In this document: in pieces, positions 1 through 11,275 of the stretch
Layout of the letters: each line of letters opens with the position of its first letter
How positions within the stretch are numbered: position 1 is the stretch's first letter
Assembly: GCA_041651115.1 (NCBI GenBank)
Contig: JBAZJY010000003.1
Location: 194,524 to 258,523 of the forward strand
DNA from: Candidatus Omnitrophota bacterium
Lineage (GTDB): Bacteria > Omnitrophota > Gorgyraeia > Gygaellales > Profunditerraquicolaceae
Reading direction: 5' to 3'
Length of the DNA: 64,000 nucleotides
The notes under the pieces: model-generated
Told to the model about the DNA's origin: nothing
The model's database searches: none
What the model saw: the letters and a program-made list of their open reading frames with translations, nothing else
Translations under genes and position numbers: made by a program

Positions 1-3000
1 ATGGATCAAAGCCATCACATCCTGCAGCTGATCCCGAAAACCGAAAGCCCCGCCGGATTGATAAAAACCGCTTCGCCCCATTAGACGGCAGCTTATAAGC
101 TGATACTGCAACCATCCGTTCACAAGAAAATTTATCGAAGCATCGGACGTTTCCACATACACAACGCCTAAGGTCCGTTTCCAATAATCCCAAACCTTCT
201 CAAGTTCCTGATGCGTCGCATCAATACTGCCAAAACGCCGGACAAGGTCCCGCGCCTCATCCACGGTTTTGCCTGAGCCAAAAGTAAAAACGATCTCTTT
301 CTGCTGGCCATTATCAAGCTCAAATTTGGCCTGTGCAGCAACGCATGGATCAATCCCCGCGCCCACTCTTCCGGAAAGCCTGTCTCTGCGCATGGCAGAA
401 GGCGATGCCATGGTCCCATTTCTTCCGATAAATTCAATCCGGTCTCCGGTAACGAATCGCTTCGGTTCACTTACATCCATAAAAACAACCCTATCCGGAA
501 GTTCTTTGTTATAAGGATTGCGCGCAAACAAAGCTCCGCTTTTAGGATCGATCTCAGTCAAAATATGCATGTGATACTTGTCCCGGAATGTTCCCATAAC
601 CAACTCGCAATAGTCCGTCGCCGAAAGCCGCCTTCGCCGGCCGGAAATATTCCTAATTTTAAGGACCGAGAATTTGACGCGTTCCTCCTGCGAAACAAAA
701 ACCGTTAATTCCGAAACAATCCCGTTTTCAGTATGCTCAAAAACGCTATAGCCAAATCCATGGCGCGAGGTATATTGGGTCTTACCCGTAGCGGGAAGCG
801 GCGTCGGAGACCAGAATCTTCCACTTTCTTCATCGCGAATATAAAGCGCCTCTCCCGAAGCATCCGTAACAGGATCATTCTTACAAGTCGTTAAACGAAA
901 CTCACGCGCATTCTCGCTCCAGGTATAAGCGCTGCCGCTTTCAGAAACCACTGTGCCGAAATTCCGGTTCGCCAACACATTTACCCAGGGAGCGGGGGTA
1001 GTTTTTGAATGTGAAGTCGTGATCACGTATTCCCGGCCATCCCCGGTAAATCCTCCTACGCCATTAAAATAAACAAGATCCGGGCGCTCCGCAAAACCCT
1101 TGTCCTCTTCTTCCGGATCATCTTGCCTAGTCGGAACAAACGGCAGAAAATTCGCCTTTGGGTGCGTCATATCACTCAACTGCTCAGCCAGCGTACCTCC
1201 GCGATCCGAAATAATTATCCGTGCCACCGTTTGCATGAGAATCCGGTCTTCATCTGACATCTGATCGGCGCGCTTTAAAAAAATACCGCCATTCTTCTGC
1301 GCTGTTTCCTTGCTATTGGCAAGGATTAACCCGCTGATTCTTTCCCCCAGACTATCACGATAAATGGAACTATTTTCATTCCATATAATAATATCAACCG
1401 CCAAGCCCTTCATGCGCCAATAAGCATGGGCCTGCAACATCTTAACGACCAGATCGATATTATCCTGATTTTCGATACGCACCAGGACAATCGGCAGGTC
1501 CCCCGAAATACTGTATCCCCAAAGGTCAGACTGGCCGCGGTTATTCCTCCGCAAAATACTCGCGCTCGCCCGCCACGCAGGATTCGCGTACAAAATAGCG
1601 CTTGCAAGCCGGCCGTAAAGTTGGGCGTCGGCTTCCGTAGAATTAATCTGCTGTAAAGCAACCTGCCCGTGAGTCCAGGCTAAATTAAAAACACGGTCAG
1701 CTAAATTCCTATCCCTGTATTTTTCCATGAGCGCTTGCGCGGCTTGCCTGCTTTCGCATATGCCGGTTACATAATCGATCACTGCCGATTCATCCGGCTC
1801 CAATTCAATCTGGCTGCGAATCGAAACAATCGGGTCAAGCACAGAACCCTCGCTATCTGAAAGATGACCGCGGCCATGCATCGCTGCAGGATCAGCCACT
1901 GTGTGCCCTCGCCCGATAAACTTACTGCGTTCTGTTTCATAAGAAGCGCCGACAATGGCATTGCCATGCACCGCCATCAGGTGCAGCATCCAAGGAAACG
2001 CTTCTTTATCCGAACGCGGCCGCCGCTGACAAAGGATCGCCTGATGCGACTTGATAATTTCAGTCTGGACAAACAAATTACTGAATATCCGTTGGGCCTG
2101 ATCGTTTGCGGGATCATTTAATACAACTTCCGCATAACTGGTAATTTCTATAATACGCTTGTTACGTGACCGGTTGGTGATAGTCAGCCGGCGCAGTTCA
2201 ATGTCATCTTCCGGAGAAACCGCAATCTCGGTATGTGTATCGATCTGATAGTCCCGCCGCTTAAACTCCACCCAAGCCTGAGAGAACAAAGCTTCATAAT
2301 GCTTAGGCTTGTTTTGCGTCGGCTGATACGCCGAGGACCAGAACTGGCCGGACTCCACATCCCGGAGATAAATAAAAGTTCCATTATTATCCAATGCAGA
2401 ATCTTCACTCCACCGTGTTACAGCGACATTTTGCCAGCGGCTGTATCCTCCTCCGGAGTTAGTAACCATCACATGGTACCGGCCGTTGGAAAGAGGGTGA
2501 ACTTCAGGCACCGGAGTTTGGGGAGTTGTAAACAGCCGTAAAAGCGTTTCCTTTTCTCCGAATTTCCTAAGCATTCCGGTTACTTCAAAATCATAAAGGA
2601 ACGGTTCGACATTCGGCACTCTCTCTTGAAGAAGAAGTTCAGTAGATTTAAACATGGGGTCCGCAAGAAAACGTCTTTGCATCGGCCGGTCCAAAAGCAC
2701 ATAGGCAAGAGACAACAAGCTCATACCCTGATGATGCGCCATATATGATTTCACGATCGCCCGATTTTCATCCGGAGCAAGGCGCGCCGGCGTGTAATCA
2801 ATGGCTTCGTAAAAGCCGTAGATACCTCCGGCTCCTTCTTCGAATAAACGCTCGAGATTCTTACAGGCCTTCTCCGGCTCCACCATTAAGGCAAGCATCG
2901 AAGCATACGGAGCCACAACCAGATCTTCGGCAAGCCCCCGCTTAAAACCCATGTCCGGGACTCCAAAAGAGTGATATTGATAAATCCTGCTAGCGTCAAC

Positions 3001-7615: not shown

Positions 7616-8350
7616 CTATTTATCGCGCTTTAGGTTTCTTTCAGCAAACTCCCAATTAATCAATTTATCAATTACTGCCTTCAGGTGGTCGCTGCGCAGG
7701 TTCTGATAATCCAGGTAATAGGCGTGTTCCCACACATCCAGAACCAGGATCGCTTTTCCATTTTTTTGAGAGATCGGATTTTCCGCATTCGCAGTTTTGA
7801 TGATCCTAAGAGTCCCCGCATCTTCGATCAGCCATACCCAACCGCTGCCAAATTGGGCTATGCCTGCTTGGGAAAATTGCTGCACAAAGTTTTCATAACT
7901 GCCGAAGTCAGCCTCGATTTTTTTACCGATCTTTCCCGTAGGCTTACCGCCTCCCTTAGGTGAGAGGCTGTTCCAGTAGAAGTTATGATTCCAAACCTGG
8001 GCTGCATTATTAAAGATAGCTGTCTTATCGGCCTTATCGGCGGTTTTTTCAATCACCTCTTCAAGGGCAAGGCCCACAAACTCAGTGCCTGAAACAAGTT
8101 CATTTAGCTTATTCACATAACCCCGATGATGTTTACCGTAGTGAAAACTCAGGGTTTTCGCGGAAATAACCGGCTGTAAGGCATCTTCTTCATAGGGAAG
8201 CGCCGGCAATACGAAAAGACTTGATTTAACGTCTTCCATCGCCAGGCTCCTTTCCTGGTTAACTTCGGCTTCAGCCTTAATTACCAATATAGGGCAAAAA
8301 AAGATAACATTAAATATAAAAATAATCAATAAAATAAGACTTATTCTCAT
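7616..8350 (-). CDS. sodB: Fe/Mn superoxide dismutase with an N-terminal signal peptide (periplasmic or secreted)
   Basis: 244-aa ORF with motifs [14 protein letters not shown] and DVWEHAYY and a hydrophobic N-terminal leader. Confidence 0.9.
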
Positions 8351-8753
8351 AAAATCCCTCTGCGTCTCTAAGGAAACAGCTTAAATGCACCGCGCCCTGG
8401 GCGACCGAGCCGCAGGCGAGGAAGTCCCTTTAGGGAGGGCGCTCCCACATCTCGCGTGCCCCATTCGCCCCGCTTAGGAGCGGGGCTCATTCGGCGCCAG
8501 CCTTGGCCGGCTGGCTTCTTGCTAATGCAATGCGTGTGCGGCGTGGCCGCCGCTCTACAACAATAGAAGAATCCACGGTCGCGGCGTGCGTCCTCGCTTC
8601 AGCTATCCCTAACCTTAAAAACAAAAATTTTCTTAGGAAAGAAGCTCGGCCGCTTCCCGCTCTACAACCAGAGAAAATCCAGGGTCGCGGGATGCCCCGC
8701 CTCTTGCGGGCAGTGCTTCAAAGAACTGCTTTGGCGGGGCGCGGCCCCCACCC

Positions 8754-8822
8754 CGCGCCCCGCCTAGCGCTATCTTTTCAAAAAACTGGCGAAATTTTTA
8801 GGGGAGGAAAGTCTGTTTACTT
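8754..8822. repeat. GC-rich direct repeat copy A, about 70 bp, roughly 85 percent identical to copy B at 10255-10323
   Basis: cgcgccccgcctagcgctatc(t/c)ttt caaaa..actg(g/c)cg(a/c)aatttttagggg..., preceded by GC hairpin GGGGCGCGG/CCGCGCCCC. Confidence 0.7.
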
Positions 8823-9866
8823 CACTCCTAAAAGTGTACTAACTTTATTTAAATTCATCGCCATATATTTTGCAATAAATGTAATTATGGCACCGACTAA
8901 GGCTATTATCAATCCTGCTAAAATTGAATCCTTATTTTTATCCCAGAATGATCGTTCTCTATCTCCTAAGTAAATTATCGCCTTTGGAAACCAACTTTTA
9001 TAAATTTTAGCTAAGATTAACAACGCCAAAACAGATATTGTAATTAAAGCTACCCTTGCGGTAATAGAATTAATTGATGGCAAAATGACAAGAACAAATA
9101 AAAAAATAATACTGTTAATCATTGGTCCATATTTAGTGAAGAATACTGTAGATTTACTTTTATATCTACTTATGTAATCTTCTATTTCGGCTGCCCTACC
9201 GTTAACCCATGTAGGATTATCTCCGCTAATAGATGCATTGTTATCATCAGCGGGCTTAAAATTAAGATTTACTACTTTATATCCACTCTGTGCGCTAGGC
9301 TCGTTGAATGAGATTGTCATATCGTTTATTATTCTTGGAAGTGCAGTGTCCTTTATAAATGCGTCAAGCCCCATTTTAAAAAAGGATGAACCCCTATAAT
9401 TTATCACAAACGTCGGCTGAACATTCGGAGCTATATCCTTCATCATCAGAGCCAAAAGTCCACCTAATTCTCGTGCATCCATTTTACAAGCCGGTAATTT
9501 AATGGGCTTAGAGATAAAAGCTGTAGGGGCAGGATTTAGAAATACTTCTTTATGTTTGAACAGGTGCAATGTTCCTTTAGTGCCGATATCAGTGCTCCAT
9601 TCTCCTTTTATTTCTTCTCCTGATTCTCCTATTTCTCCTTTCAAATTTGCTGATTTTGGATTACCTTCTGTATTTGGCGTAAAATCAAAAACTTTGCCAG
9701 TAAATTTATTATCTTTTATTTCTAATTCTAGTTTACCGTTTAAGTTTTGGTATTTAATATCATGAATAAAAAACGACCCTTCAGTTTTACCTTCTTTTTC
9801 TTGAAGATCCAAAACGCATTGCCCTTTATTTGTACCATCAATAATGCCGATCCATTTACCTTTCAT
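8817..9866 (-). CDS. Hypothetical protein with an N-terminal soluble domain of about 235 aa and three C-terminal TM helices, encoded in an AT-rich cassette
   Basis: 349-aa ORF; strongly AT-rich compared with its surroundings; C-terminal hydrophobic helices; I recognise no known family. Confidence 0.55.
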   Translation of the reverse strand: MKGKWIGIIDGTNKGQCVLDLQEKEGKTEGSFFIHDIKYQNLNGKLELEIKDNKFTGKVFDFTPNTEGNPKSANLKGEIGESGEEIKGEWSTDIGTKGTLHLFKHKEVFLNPAPTAFISKPIKLPACKMDARELGGLLALMMKDIAPNVQPTFVINYRGSSFFKMGLDAFIKDTALPRIINDMTISFNEPSAQSGYKVVNLNFKPADDNNASISGDNPTWVNGRAAEIEDYISRYKSKSTVFFTKYGPMINSIIFLFVLVILPSINSITARVALITISVLALLILAKIYKSWFPKAIIYLGDRERSFWDKNKDSILAGLIIALVGAIITFIAKYMAMNLNKVSTLLGVK

Positions 9867-9917
9867 AGTTTCACCTCTTTGTTCTATTCATCAACAAATA
9901 ATTCTGCCTCTATTTTT

Positions 9918-10217
9918 TTATTTCCTCATGAATAATCTTAATAAAATATCTATCAATGCTGCCAAAGCTATTATTGCAGTCAAACAAAGATTAATTCTTG
10001 AAAGTTTTTCGTTAGATTTTGACAACTTTTCATTAGATTTCTGCATTTTCTCTGTTTGCAAACACAACGCTTCTTTTAAAATTGCGATTTCACTACTTAA
10101 GAATCTGATGCTTTTGGATTGCAGAACTGCTTCGGCGGGTGAAGCACTTGTTGGATCAGTAACCCTAGAAAGGAGCTCTTCTATTTCATCAATTGACATT
10201 TTAGCTAAATTATTCAT
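9918..10217 (-). CDS. Small hypothetical protein with coiled-coil character, an internal EKLSKSN repeat and a single C-terminal TM helix
   Basis: 99-aa ORF with AAGGAG 5 nt upstream of its ATG; directly upstream of 8817..9866 in the same orientation. Confidence 0.5.
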   Translation of the reverse strand: MNNLAKMSIDEIEELLSRVTDPTSASPAEAVLQSKSIRFLSSEIAILKEALCLQTEKMQKSNEKLSKSNEKLSRINLCLTAIIALAALIDILLRLFMRK

Positions 10218-10254
10218 TTATTCTCCTTTTTTACTGCTTGTGCGCGACTGGGTA

Positions 10255-10323
10255 CGCGCCCCGCCTAGCGCTATCCTTTCAAAATACTGCCGCAATTTTT
10301 AGGGGGAAGAAATTGTTACTTTT
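10255..10323. repeat. GC-rich direct repeat copy B (partner of 8754-8822); in minus orientation it carries the RBS/promoter region of the 99-aa gene
   Basis: Alignment to copy A; preceded by hairpin GCGCG actgggta CGCGC. Confidence 0.7.
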
Positions 10324-10653
10324 CAAAAAATTCGAAAATATAAAATTTTTATTTCACACAAACATAGAAATTCTACAATCAGGCCAATAAAGAATCGTTT
10401 TTTCGTCTTTTTTGACGAACCCTCTAATAGGACCATCTTGTGAAAGCACAAAAGAAACAGCACCATAAAAATCACCTATAAAATCTATAGCAGAATTATG
10501 CCTTCTACCAAAGACGCTCGTATTAAGTTCTTGCCGAGCTGTGCAACATATTCACGAAACAGCGAAAATGGCGGATTAGTCACAACAATATCAGCTTCTT
10601 TGAGTAGCTCAATACATTCCACCCACATCGTCGAAAACCGAGGAAATAAAAAA

Positions 10654-10733
10654 TGGGGTGGCTGACGGGGATCGAACCCGCAAAACCTCTAGAGCCACAG
10701 TCTAGCGCTCTGACCAATTGAGCTACAGCCACC
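10654..10733 (-). tRNA. tRNA-His (anticodon GTG) with encoded G-1 and CCA
   Basis: Reverse complement reads G-GTGGCTG TA GCTCAATTGGTCAGAGC ... CTGTGGC loop ... TTCGATC ... CAGCCAC C CCA. Confidence 0.85.
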
Positions 10734-10740
10734 ATATTTA

Positions 10741-11199
10741 CTATGAGTGGAGAATAGCGTGGCAATTACAACATATTCTTTCTAAATTATCAATTTTATT
10801 ATTTTTTCTGTTTCCATCTTTATGATGGACAACTAAGACTCGCTTATCGGGAATCCCGCACCTATTACATTTATATGGAATATTATATCTGCGCATTAAA
10901 TCACGATAAGCAGTTTCTCCGGAAATCCAATTTGGGGCATTAACACCATAACGGACATTTCTATTTTCCCAAGAACAATGACAAGCTACGCCACAAAAGA
11001 ATTTATTTCTTTTTGATCTCTTAAAGTCTTTAGGAGTCCTCCAAACTTTTTTCCCGCAATAAGCACATTCAACCCATTTACCTTTAAATTGAGCCTTGGT
11101 TCGACATTTTATAGAACAATATTTACCCCACCCTTTTCTTGCATGAAAAGGTTTTATATAGAATTCCTTACCGCAAATTTTACACTTTTTGTTAGGCAC
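10741..11199 (-). CDS. HNH endonuclease with multiple CxxC zinc-ribbon motifs
   Basis: 152 aa; C-terminal VVHHKDGNRKNNKIDNLERICCNCHAILH matches the HNH motif. Confidence 0.8.
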   Translation of the reverse strand: MPNKKCKICGKEFYIKPFHARKGWGKYCSIKCRTKAQFKGKWVECAYCGKKVWRTPKDFKRSKRNKFFCGVACHCSWENRNVRYGVNAPNWISGETAYRDLMRRYNIPYKCNRCGIPDKRVLVVHHKDGNRKNNKIDNLERICCNCHAILHS

Positions 11200-11275
11200 G
11201 TAAAAATTATATCAAAGAACAATAAATATGTCAAATCAATAAACTAGCTCACGGTTAGATGCTCTAACCTTCAAT

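Follow-up and report, generated by a model that had tools for sequence, protein, structure and literature searches.

A two-gene membrane cassette of an Omnitrophota bacterium as the probable end of a defence-gene cassette array bounded by a conserved junction repeat

The window analysed here, a 64,000-nucleotide (nt) stretch of a Candidatus Omnitrophota bacterium (GenBank assembly GCA_041651115.1, contig JBAZJY010000003.1, positions 194,524 to 258,523), carries two adjoining membrane-protein genes between a tRNA-His gene and a superoxide dismutase (SOD) gene. Read along the minus strand, an HNH endonuclease gene is followed by tRNA-His, a methyltransferase remnant, a repeat (B), the gene for a protein of 99 amino acids (aa), the gene for a 349-aa protein, a second repeat (A) at the end of a GC-rich stretch, and SOD. 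The two open reading frames (ORFs) are co-oriented (99 aa, 9918..10217; 349 aa, 8817..9866; both minus) and separated by a spacer of 51 nt, and their G+C contents of 32.3% and 33.5% compare with 45.3% for the 64-kb window and 59.5% for the GC-rich stretch at 8364..8810. We propose that 8364-10653 is probably the downstream end of a defence-gene cassette array seated in a tRNA-His/SOD insertion hotspot, with the two-gene cassette as what we consider the likely last unit of a string of anti-phage cassettes known so far only in Omnitrophota. An original prediction, made from the DNA letters, had described two AT-rich genes flanked by direct repeats beside tRNA-His and an HNH gene, the smaller protein with one C-terminal transmembrane (TM) helix and the larger with three. 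This description is correct, since ORFs, composition, repeats, the count of the repeat core, tRNA and HNH gene all check out; the 99-aa protein has a single hydrophobic helix at its C-terminus, and a structural model of the 349-aa protein has three long C-terminal helices. The prediction overlooked the methyltransferase remnant and did not see that repeat A closes a far longer element of 447 nt.

The two repeats are copies of one module of about 60 nt, copy A at 8752-8810 and a solo copy B at 10254..10312 (nhmmer E = 5.7e-20). They share 92% identity over 51 nt (8754-8804 versus 10255-10305); over the full 69-nt span, for which about 85% had been predicted, the ungapped identity is 53/69 = 77%. 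A 21-nt core occurs exactly twice in the 64 kb, with 0 occurrences expected in shuffles, and each copy is preceded, as predicted, by a GC hairpin readable from the sequence: one with a 12-bp stem at 8733-8764 before copy A, which is the terminal hairpin of the GC-rich element, and a short one with a 5-bp stem at 10242-10259 before copy B. In gene direction the module is TTTCCTCCCCCTAAAAATTTCGSCAGTTTTTTGAAAAGATAGCGCTAGGCGGGGCGCGGGG; it begins about 30 nt past the stop codon and leads into the GC hairpin. An exact-pattern scan for the module core found six genome loci, all six of them (6/6) in Omnitrophota metagenome-assembled genomes (MAGs), and 39 metagenome loci, and a profile of about 60 nt recovered 74 copies, 64 of them in non-redundant loci (53 loci; loci other than the window carry L numbers). 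Within one locus the copies nearly always stand in direct orientation, 0.6-4.5 kb apart and with 1-5 ORFs between them, and in 52 of 57 cases the closest ORF points towards the module and stops, at the median, 31 nt from its GGAGGAAA end. The bounded cassettes (n = 22) span 635-4536 bp, and in 21 of the 22 all ORFs are unidirectional, on the strand opposite to the module as written. Solo modules keep the left arm of the hairpin, its loop and a few bases of the right arm before the sequences diverge, and at some junctions the hairpin extends into a structured element of about 100-450 nt with multiple hairpins.

Comparison of cassettes shared between genomes places the breaks in homology at module position 25 (L018/L052), 15 (L019/L055), 29 (L052/L057), -4 (L021/L053) and 6 (L027/L057), and the homology between the window and L010 stops 22 nt from module B. 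Because inter-genome exchange of cassettes thus breaks at the module, we read the module, on this comparative evidence, as the junction at which cassettes are swapped between genomes. A second motif, CTTCTAATTTTTGAAAAATAGAAACGTCCCC, lies 15-35 nt past the module in eight cassettes and, since it consists of TTGAAA, 17 nt and an A/T-rich hexamer, is probably a shared promoter. Consensus scans of the module itself for a sigma-70 promoter or an intrinsic terminator found neither, and a search of IMG/VR viral contigs for the module gave no match. A promoter-like motif, TAATTTTTGAAAAATAGAAACG, is also seen upstream of many unrelated cassette genes, some of them without flanking modules (L035 2106-2135, L018 4580-4606, L066 6991-7020, L009 806-831 and 14 more sites); such a motif precedes a gene of the 99-aa family by 48 nt in L066 and a 349-aa homologue by about 45 nt in L009. 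As a separate observation, a 2.9-kb segment with an rve-type transposase (L058 6931 / L012 8177-11084) is 99.6% identical between the two loci and cuts the L058 module at position 49, which suggests the insertion of an insertion sequence into the junction.

In the window the module of copy A closes the GC-rich element (8364..8810), which fills the gap to the SOD gene and opens with a conserved 5' motif at 8364-8399 (plus orientation). Omnitrophota loci hold 20 unique full or short copies of this element, 105-529 nt in length, which share the 5' motif GTCTCTAAKGAAACAGCTTAAATGCACCGCGCCC (plus orientation) and the module, while the hairpins between vary in sequence with their pairing kept. RNAalifold on 13 copies gave 49 consensus pairs, 17 of which show compensatory double changes; a long-range helix with arms 170 columns apart, for instance, changes from GGCGGGGC/GCCACGCC to GGCTTTGC/GCAAAGCC. 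Paired cells amount to 96.0% compared with 87.3% in shuffles, a level reached by 0 of 500 shuffles, and the covariation score is 0.213 compared with 0.078 in shuffles and 0.015-0.068 after a shift of the partners by one to three columns. Single copies fold with z values of -1.8 to -7.5. The element of about 450 nt is a well-supported candidate for a new class of structured RNA. Rfam searches yielded nothing at the gathering threshold; with the cut-off relaxed to E <= 5 for the window and to E <= 1 for seven other loci, there was still no match of note. Its nearest relatives in kind are presumably the large structured non-coding RNAs linked to mobile DNA (HEARO/omega RNA, GOLLD, ROOL), with which it shares a length of several hundred nt, a GC-rich, multi-hairpin architecture supported by covariation and a place beside mobile or variable genes; it differs from them in having no Rfam match, in having no adjoining IscB/TnpB-type nuclease and in that its end doubles as the junction repeat.

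Within the element of the window, the hairpins at 8549-8590 and 8656-8697 share a conserved loop of about 27 nt (TCTACAAC.A.AGAA.ATCCA.GGTC), their stems differ compensatorily (CGCCGC/GCGGCG versus CCCGC/GCGGG), and other copies of the element have quite different hairpins at these positions. Short degenerate copies, which comprise the 5' motif and the middle part without the terminal hairpin, stand in tandem just upstream of full copies in L019 (4120-4253) and L026 (144-268). The terminal hairpin has an 8-nt loop that is flipped relative to its flanks (CCCCCACC instead of GGTGGGGG) in two of 29 complete copies, L029 near 1622-1680 (minus) and L055 3595-3640. Together with the inverted full copies that bracket islands in L010 and L039, these flipped loops point to DNA-level events at the hairpin. 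The two islands, of 5-7 kb, are enclosed by inverted copies with their module ends inward (L010 2-410/7409-7800; L039 84-137/5188-5246), an arrangement that resembles a composite transposon or an invertible segment.

The alternative that best withstands these data holds that module and GC-rich element are expression signals only, be it a terminator or insulator, an RNA-stability element or a 5' leader, which spread with the genes, and that the arrays arose by ordinary homologous recombination in a hotspot. It would suit the fixed position and orientation between genes, the strong GC hairpin, a covariation compatible with a transcribed RNA, the lack of any recombinase seen nearby and the presence of the full element just upstream of SOD in two genomes with 57% identity between their SODs. 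However, the hairpin has no following U-tract in gene direction, and the element is missing from the other 60 kb of the window, being found only beside variable cassettes. In addition, the flipped loops in 2/29 complete hairpins point to events at the stem on the DNA level, and inverted full copies bracket two islands (L010, L039). We regard expression signals alone as a possible but rather doubtful explanation.

The reading of the locus as part of a cassette array draws further on the cargo, a set of 79 ORFs in 69 sequence families. A family scan that covered 71 of the 79 cassette ORFs showed the recognisable cargo to consist mostly of defence, restriction-modification or toxin-antitoxin genes. 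Seven members are Fic/DOC proteins with very strong matches to SoFic, and four are AAA_15/AAA_21 ATPases matching the GajA, AriA, PtuA and Old models; cytosine and adenine methylases, Mrr, GmrSD, HEPN, DUF6036 nucleotidyltransferases, RhuM and a UvrD helicase complete the list. Given the module arrays and this content, we infer that the window cassette belongs, as a single unit, to an array of defence and toxin-antitoxin cassettes specific to this lineage.

The smaller of the two genes behaves as an independent accessory. Its 99-aa product has 28 homologues, one of them an exact match in a Candidatus Omnitrophota MAG, and in the family alignment the first 50 residues or so are almost invariant, while the coiled coil and the TM anchor vary. 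Over the first 50 codons, four comparisons outside L010 show 13-18 synonymous and 2-4 non-synonymous differences, and since the former far exceed the latter, the protein itself is under selection. DNA homology to the gene is confined to 10232-9918 in five loci, and the gene stands last or next-to-last after unrelated defence operons, namely HinfI, Dam and an N6_N4 methylase in L016, SLFN_AlbA_2 in L012, GmrSD in L010, a helicase and E2/E1 operon in L064, and DEAD/YjiV_N with Helicase_C-MZB in L066. Its family has no constant neighbour, the genes of about 280 aa that precede it in L010 and L064 being unrelated. As an observation in its own right, the family member in L064 (4293-7423) closes an operon of Prok-E2_E, ThiF (E1) and helicase genes, which from its gene content may be a ubiquitin-like conjugation defence system.

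It had been predicted that the 99-aa and 349-aa genes form a pair, and they could accordingly be conceived as an obligate two-gene abortive-infection or toxin-immunity module moved as one repeat-flanked island. Both proteins are membrane proteins encoded between two repeats, and a second population (L010/L011) has the genes in the same order with a spacer of about 50 nt and 94-96% nucleotide identity. The pair was seen only in the window and L010/L011, however, corresponding to two of ten contexts of the 349-aa family and two of six of the 99-aa family. Seven other contexts have the 349-aa gene but no 99-aa gene; the smaller gene is missing beside it in L001-L009 and L062, and tblastn found no 99-aa homologue anywhere in L001-L009. 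Conversely, members of the 99-aa family, themselves downstream of unrelated operons, are followed by DUF7380/EMARD_N, by a 126-aa gene or by no gene at all. Breaks in homology fall between the two genes, each has a promoter-like motif of its own in L009 and L066, and no module lies upstream of the pair in L010. We therefore consider an obligate module unlikely and take the 99-aa gene for an independent accessory rather than a dedicated partner of the 349-aa gene, as it trails unrelated operons and has no constant neighbour. Of the predicted defence or abortive-infection module, the neighbourhoods dominated by defence genes have stood for both genes, whereas the conserved pairing of a small TM protein with an effector has not, the 99-aa gene being absent from the other retrieved 349-aa loci.

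The 349-aa protein is rare in close form and widespread in distant form, with eight close homologues among 5.8 billion proteins and, by profile search, a family of 359 clusters, 174 of them at E <= 1e-10 and nearly all 340-360 aa long. The prediction had recognised neither protein, and neither has a known family: Pfam, PADLOC, PHROGs and NCBIfam gave no match to the 349-aa or the 99-aa protein. Pfam, PADLOC and NCBIfam gave no consistent match to 85 diverse members of the larger family either, the lone stray hit being to a PADLOC 4TM 'Effector' (E = 0.0036), and a sequence search of the PDB with the family profile returned only a chance TM match. In six loci with unrelated surroundings, gene-sized DNA homology to the 349-aa gene covers 9880-8813 and nothing beyond. 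Family members follow a helix-turn-helix (HTH) gene, a methyltransferase, R.Pab1 and an N6 methyltransferase in L005, Mrr_N, HATPase_c_3 and Dam in L006-8, three toxin-antitoxin pairs, a PLD nuclease and PemK in L003/4, an N6_N4 methylase block in L002, and Vsr, Dcm and GmrSD in L010; in L001 the gene shares an element with resolvase and primase genes, and in L062 a 34%-identical member stands after DUF1156 and an SNF2 helicase. Searches of phage and plasmid collections by tblastn with three family members gave no match, nor did a search of IMG/VR viral contigs for the 349-aa family and the 99-aa protein. These contexts, and the absence of the family from the phage, plasmid and viral-contig collections searched, suggest a host defence-island gene that acts alone. 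That the genes are acquired cargo, as predicted, is borne out by their AT-richness, the variable content of the interval among related genomes, the unrelated contexts in which they occur elsewhere and the termination of DNA homology at the gene borders.

An AlphaFold2 model of the 349-aa protein, built from the 85-sequence alignment, has a confidence (pLDDT) of 92.4 and shows an eight-stranded up-and-down beta-barrel (residues 1-105), an alpha/beta domain (118-233) and three long helices (238-345). The protein is most likely a single-gene membrane-disrupting abortive-infection effector, whose mode of action may be comparable to that of Cap15/OptE. In Cap15/OptE (S-2TM-beta), a two-pass N-terminal TM element is joined to a C-terminal nucleotide-binding barrel, and the gene lies beside a nucleotide synthase (PMC12657218). 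The eight-stranded minimal beta-barrel of the model is like that of these proteins of the CBASS and Panoptes systems. In contrast, the order of the 349-aa protein is reversed, with the barrel N-terminal and three TM helices C-terminal; an additional alpha/beta domain of 115 residues is present; identity is 11%, with no detectable sequence similarity and no PADLOC or Pfam match; and no CD-NTase/SMODS or mCpol gene adjoins it in the ten contexts examined. On account of the reversed order, the extra domain, the three TM helices and the missing synthase neighbour, the protein is not a member of S-2TM-beta. The profile and structure searches proposed along with the prediction have thus yielded no family match for either protein and, for the larger one, a Cap15-like barrel in the model. 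With 359 clusters, no annotation and a confident model of barrel and TM helices, the family is a candidate for a new single-gene defence effector.

The site of insertion is bounded by the 3' end of tRNA-His(GTG) (10654..10732, minus; ARAGORN and Rfam) on one side and by the core gene for an Fe/Mn SOD (7616..8350, minus; Pfam Sod_Fe_N and Sod_Fe_C) on the other. In L027, whose DUF748 protein is 40% identical to that of the window, tRNA-Arg(TCT), the DUF748 gene and tRNA-His are followed directly by an HTH+Doc cassette closed by a module; in L041 a full element lies immediately upstream of an SOD gene (57% identical), and in L019 a cassette array stands beside SOD. Insertions have therefore recurred between tRNA-His and SOD. 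A search of the genome collection with the DUF748 neighbour found no relatives. The locus resembles tRNA-linked islands in its AT-rich foreign genes starting from a tRNA 3' end, its variable content and its decayed restriction-modification gene, and the prediction had envisaged att-like boundaries for the segment. A classical island, with the tRNA-His 3' end as the target of a tyrosine integrase and the 70-bp repeats as attL and attR, would account for acquired DNA that starts directly at this end and for foreign genes at the same position in a related genome. Yet no part of tRNA-His is duplicated within 8301-10653 (best match 10 nt, E = 0.13), the repeats do not match the tRNA 3' end, and the methyltransferase remnant and the two ORFs of 99 aa and 349 aa are all that the interval contains, with no integrase gene. 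A tblastn search with an approximate XerD query found nothing in the window or the 66 loci. Unlike the boundaries of such islands, the modules are lineage-specific and also occur far from tRNAs, the same repeat family punctuating cassette arrays at many loci without a tRNA. The classical island is thus largely refuted and very improbable. The comparison with related genomes suggested along with the prediction does show that the content of the segment varies between them.

Integrons are the established platform for stockpiling gene cassettes. The Omnitrophota arrays resemble sedentary chromosomal integrons and clusters of attC sites lacking integron-integrases (CALIN) in their cassettes of 0.6-4.5 kb, in the single conserved repeat that follows the ORFs in fixed orientation and in a very diverse, defence- and toxin-antitoxin-rich cargo (69 families among 79 ORFs), and the high similarity of the repeats within a lineage recalls the VCR repeats of Vibrio. 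They differ from integrons in a repeat without attC hairpin or GTTRRRY core, in the absence of IntI from the neighbourhoods searched, in the promoter-like motif that many cassettes have of their own and in the growth of some junctions to a structured element of 100-450 nt. Defence systems have been found in integron cassettes (bioRxiv 10.1101/2024.07.02.601686; 10.1101/2024.07.02.601719), and the attC core GTTRRRY comprises 7 bp at the crossover point (PMC8876359). That the modules are attC sites of a canonical integron or CALIN, recombined by IntI as folded single strands, is hardly credible in spite of the short-cassette arrays with an ORF and then a repeated site in one orientation and their diverse cargo, as nine single-stranded DNA (ssDNA) module folds on both strands are no more stable than shuffles (z -0.53 to +2.11), GTTRRRY occurs in 2 of 64 modules (10-nt flanks on each side included), the modules are conserved by sequence rather than as imperfect palindromes, promoter-like motifs accompany many individual cassettes and no integrase was found nearby, either among the recurrent Pfam families of 117 flanking ORFs or with the approximate XerD query. 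The attC identity of the modules was rejected on their folding and on the rarity of GTTRRRY.

Returning to the defence-gene cassette array, we propose the following hypothetical scenario, in which (i) the array would be built from cassettes of one to few co-oriented genes with a module of about 60 nt between them; (ii) cassettes would be swapped at the module, either by a site-specific recombinase or by homologous recombination between modules; (iii) the window cassette would consist of two independently mobile genes; (iv) the cytosolic barrel and alpha/beta domain of the 349-aa protein would sense a small ligand or a phage product; (v) its three TM helices would then oligomerise and damage the inner membrane; and (vi) the 99-aa tail-anchored protein would serve as an accessory that trails many unrelated defence operons. 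Several observations weigh against parts of this scenario. No recombinase is among the recurrent Pfam families listed for the 117 ORFs flanking modules, and the module may serve as a regulatory unit or terminator that contributes no more than its homology to recombination. The promoter-like motif was not found in the window, where module B is without it, and the transcribed strand of the element leans only weakly to the gene direction (slightly more pairs, 13 G-U versus 6 A-C pairs, and lower folding energy in 11 of 14 copies). As for the 349-aa protein, the barrel fold is generic, with de novo barrels, outer-membrane barrels and avidins scoring equal to Cap15, none of the PADLOC models fits the family, and no nucleotide synthase or other signalling partner adjoins any family member in the window, L001-L010 or L062. 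Its association with defence islands also fits anti-defence, a toxin or mobile-element maintenance.

In a more far-reaching form, which we put forward tentatively, Omnitrophota would possess a cassette-capture platform analogous to integrons and differently built, with a junction of about 60-85 nt whose palindromic GC hairpin is the crossover, at times extended to a structured RNA or ssDNA of about 450 nt, and with self-promoted defence cassettes assembled by an enzyme at hotspots; single-gene membrane effectors of abortive infection, equipped with a Cap15-like sensor barrel, would form a new family with the 349-aa protein as its founder. If this is true, a second, mechanistically different route to cassette arrays would exist in a poorly studied uncultivated phylum, thereby widening our view of how defence islands are assembled, and the module would serve as a simple sequence handle with which unknown defence genes could be harvested from metagenomes. 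The junction repeat, the folded element of 450 nt and the 349-aa family are all undescribed, and the locus is more interesting for its surroundings than for the two-gene pairing that had been proposed.

Two neighbours of the cassette remain to be described. Just past the 3' end of tRNA-His lies a 330-bp remnant of an EcoRI-type adenine DNA methyltransferase (10324..10653, minus; three-frame translation), 5'-truncated and frame-broken, whose best stretch (10485-10628) matches PF13651 at positions 131-159 of 345 (E = 3.3e-14) and the PADLOC model MTase_II (E = 4.7e-13); it probably represents what survives of an older restriction-modification cassette. On the other side of the tRNA, a free-standing HNH endonuclease gene (10741..11199, minus; 34.4% G+C) matches Pfam HNH_3 and PHROG 1271 (E = 1.8e-15). 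The prediction had noted it and tRNA-His immediately beyond a segment that looked like a small integrated island; the acquired segment holds, and the HNH gene is a separate insertion. It is missing from the syntenic L027 (1295-1322), where the gap between the DUF748 gene and tRNA-His is 27 nt, and, judged from this comparison, it is an independent insertion of the homing-endonuclease type between these two genes.

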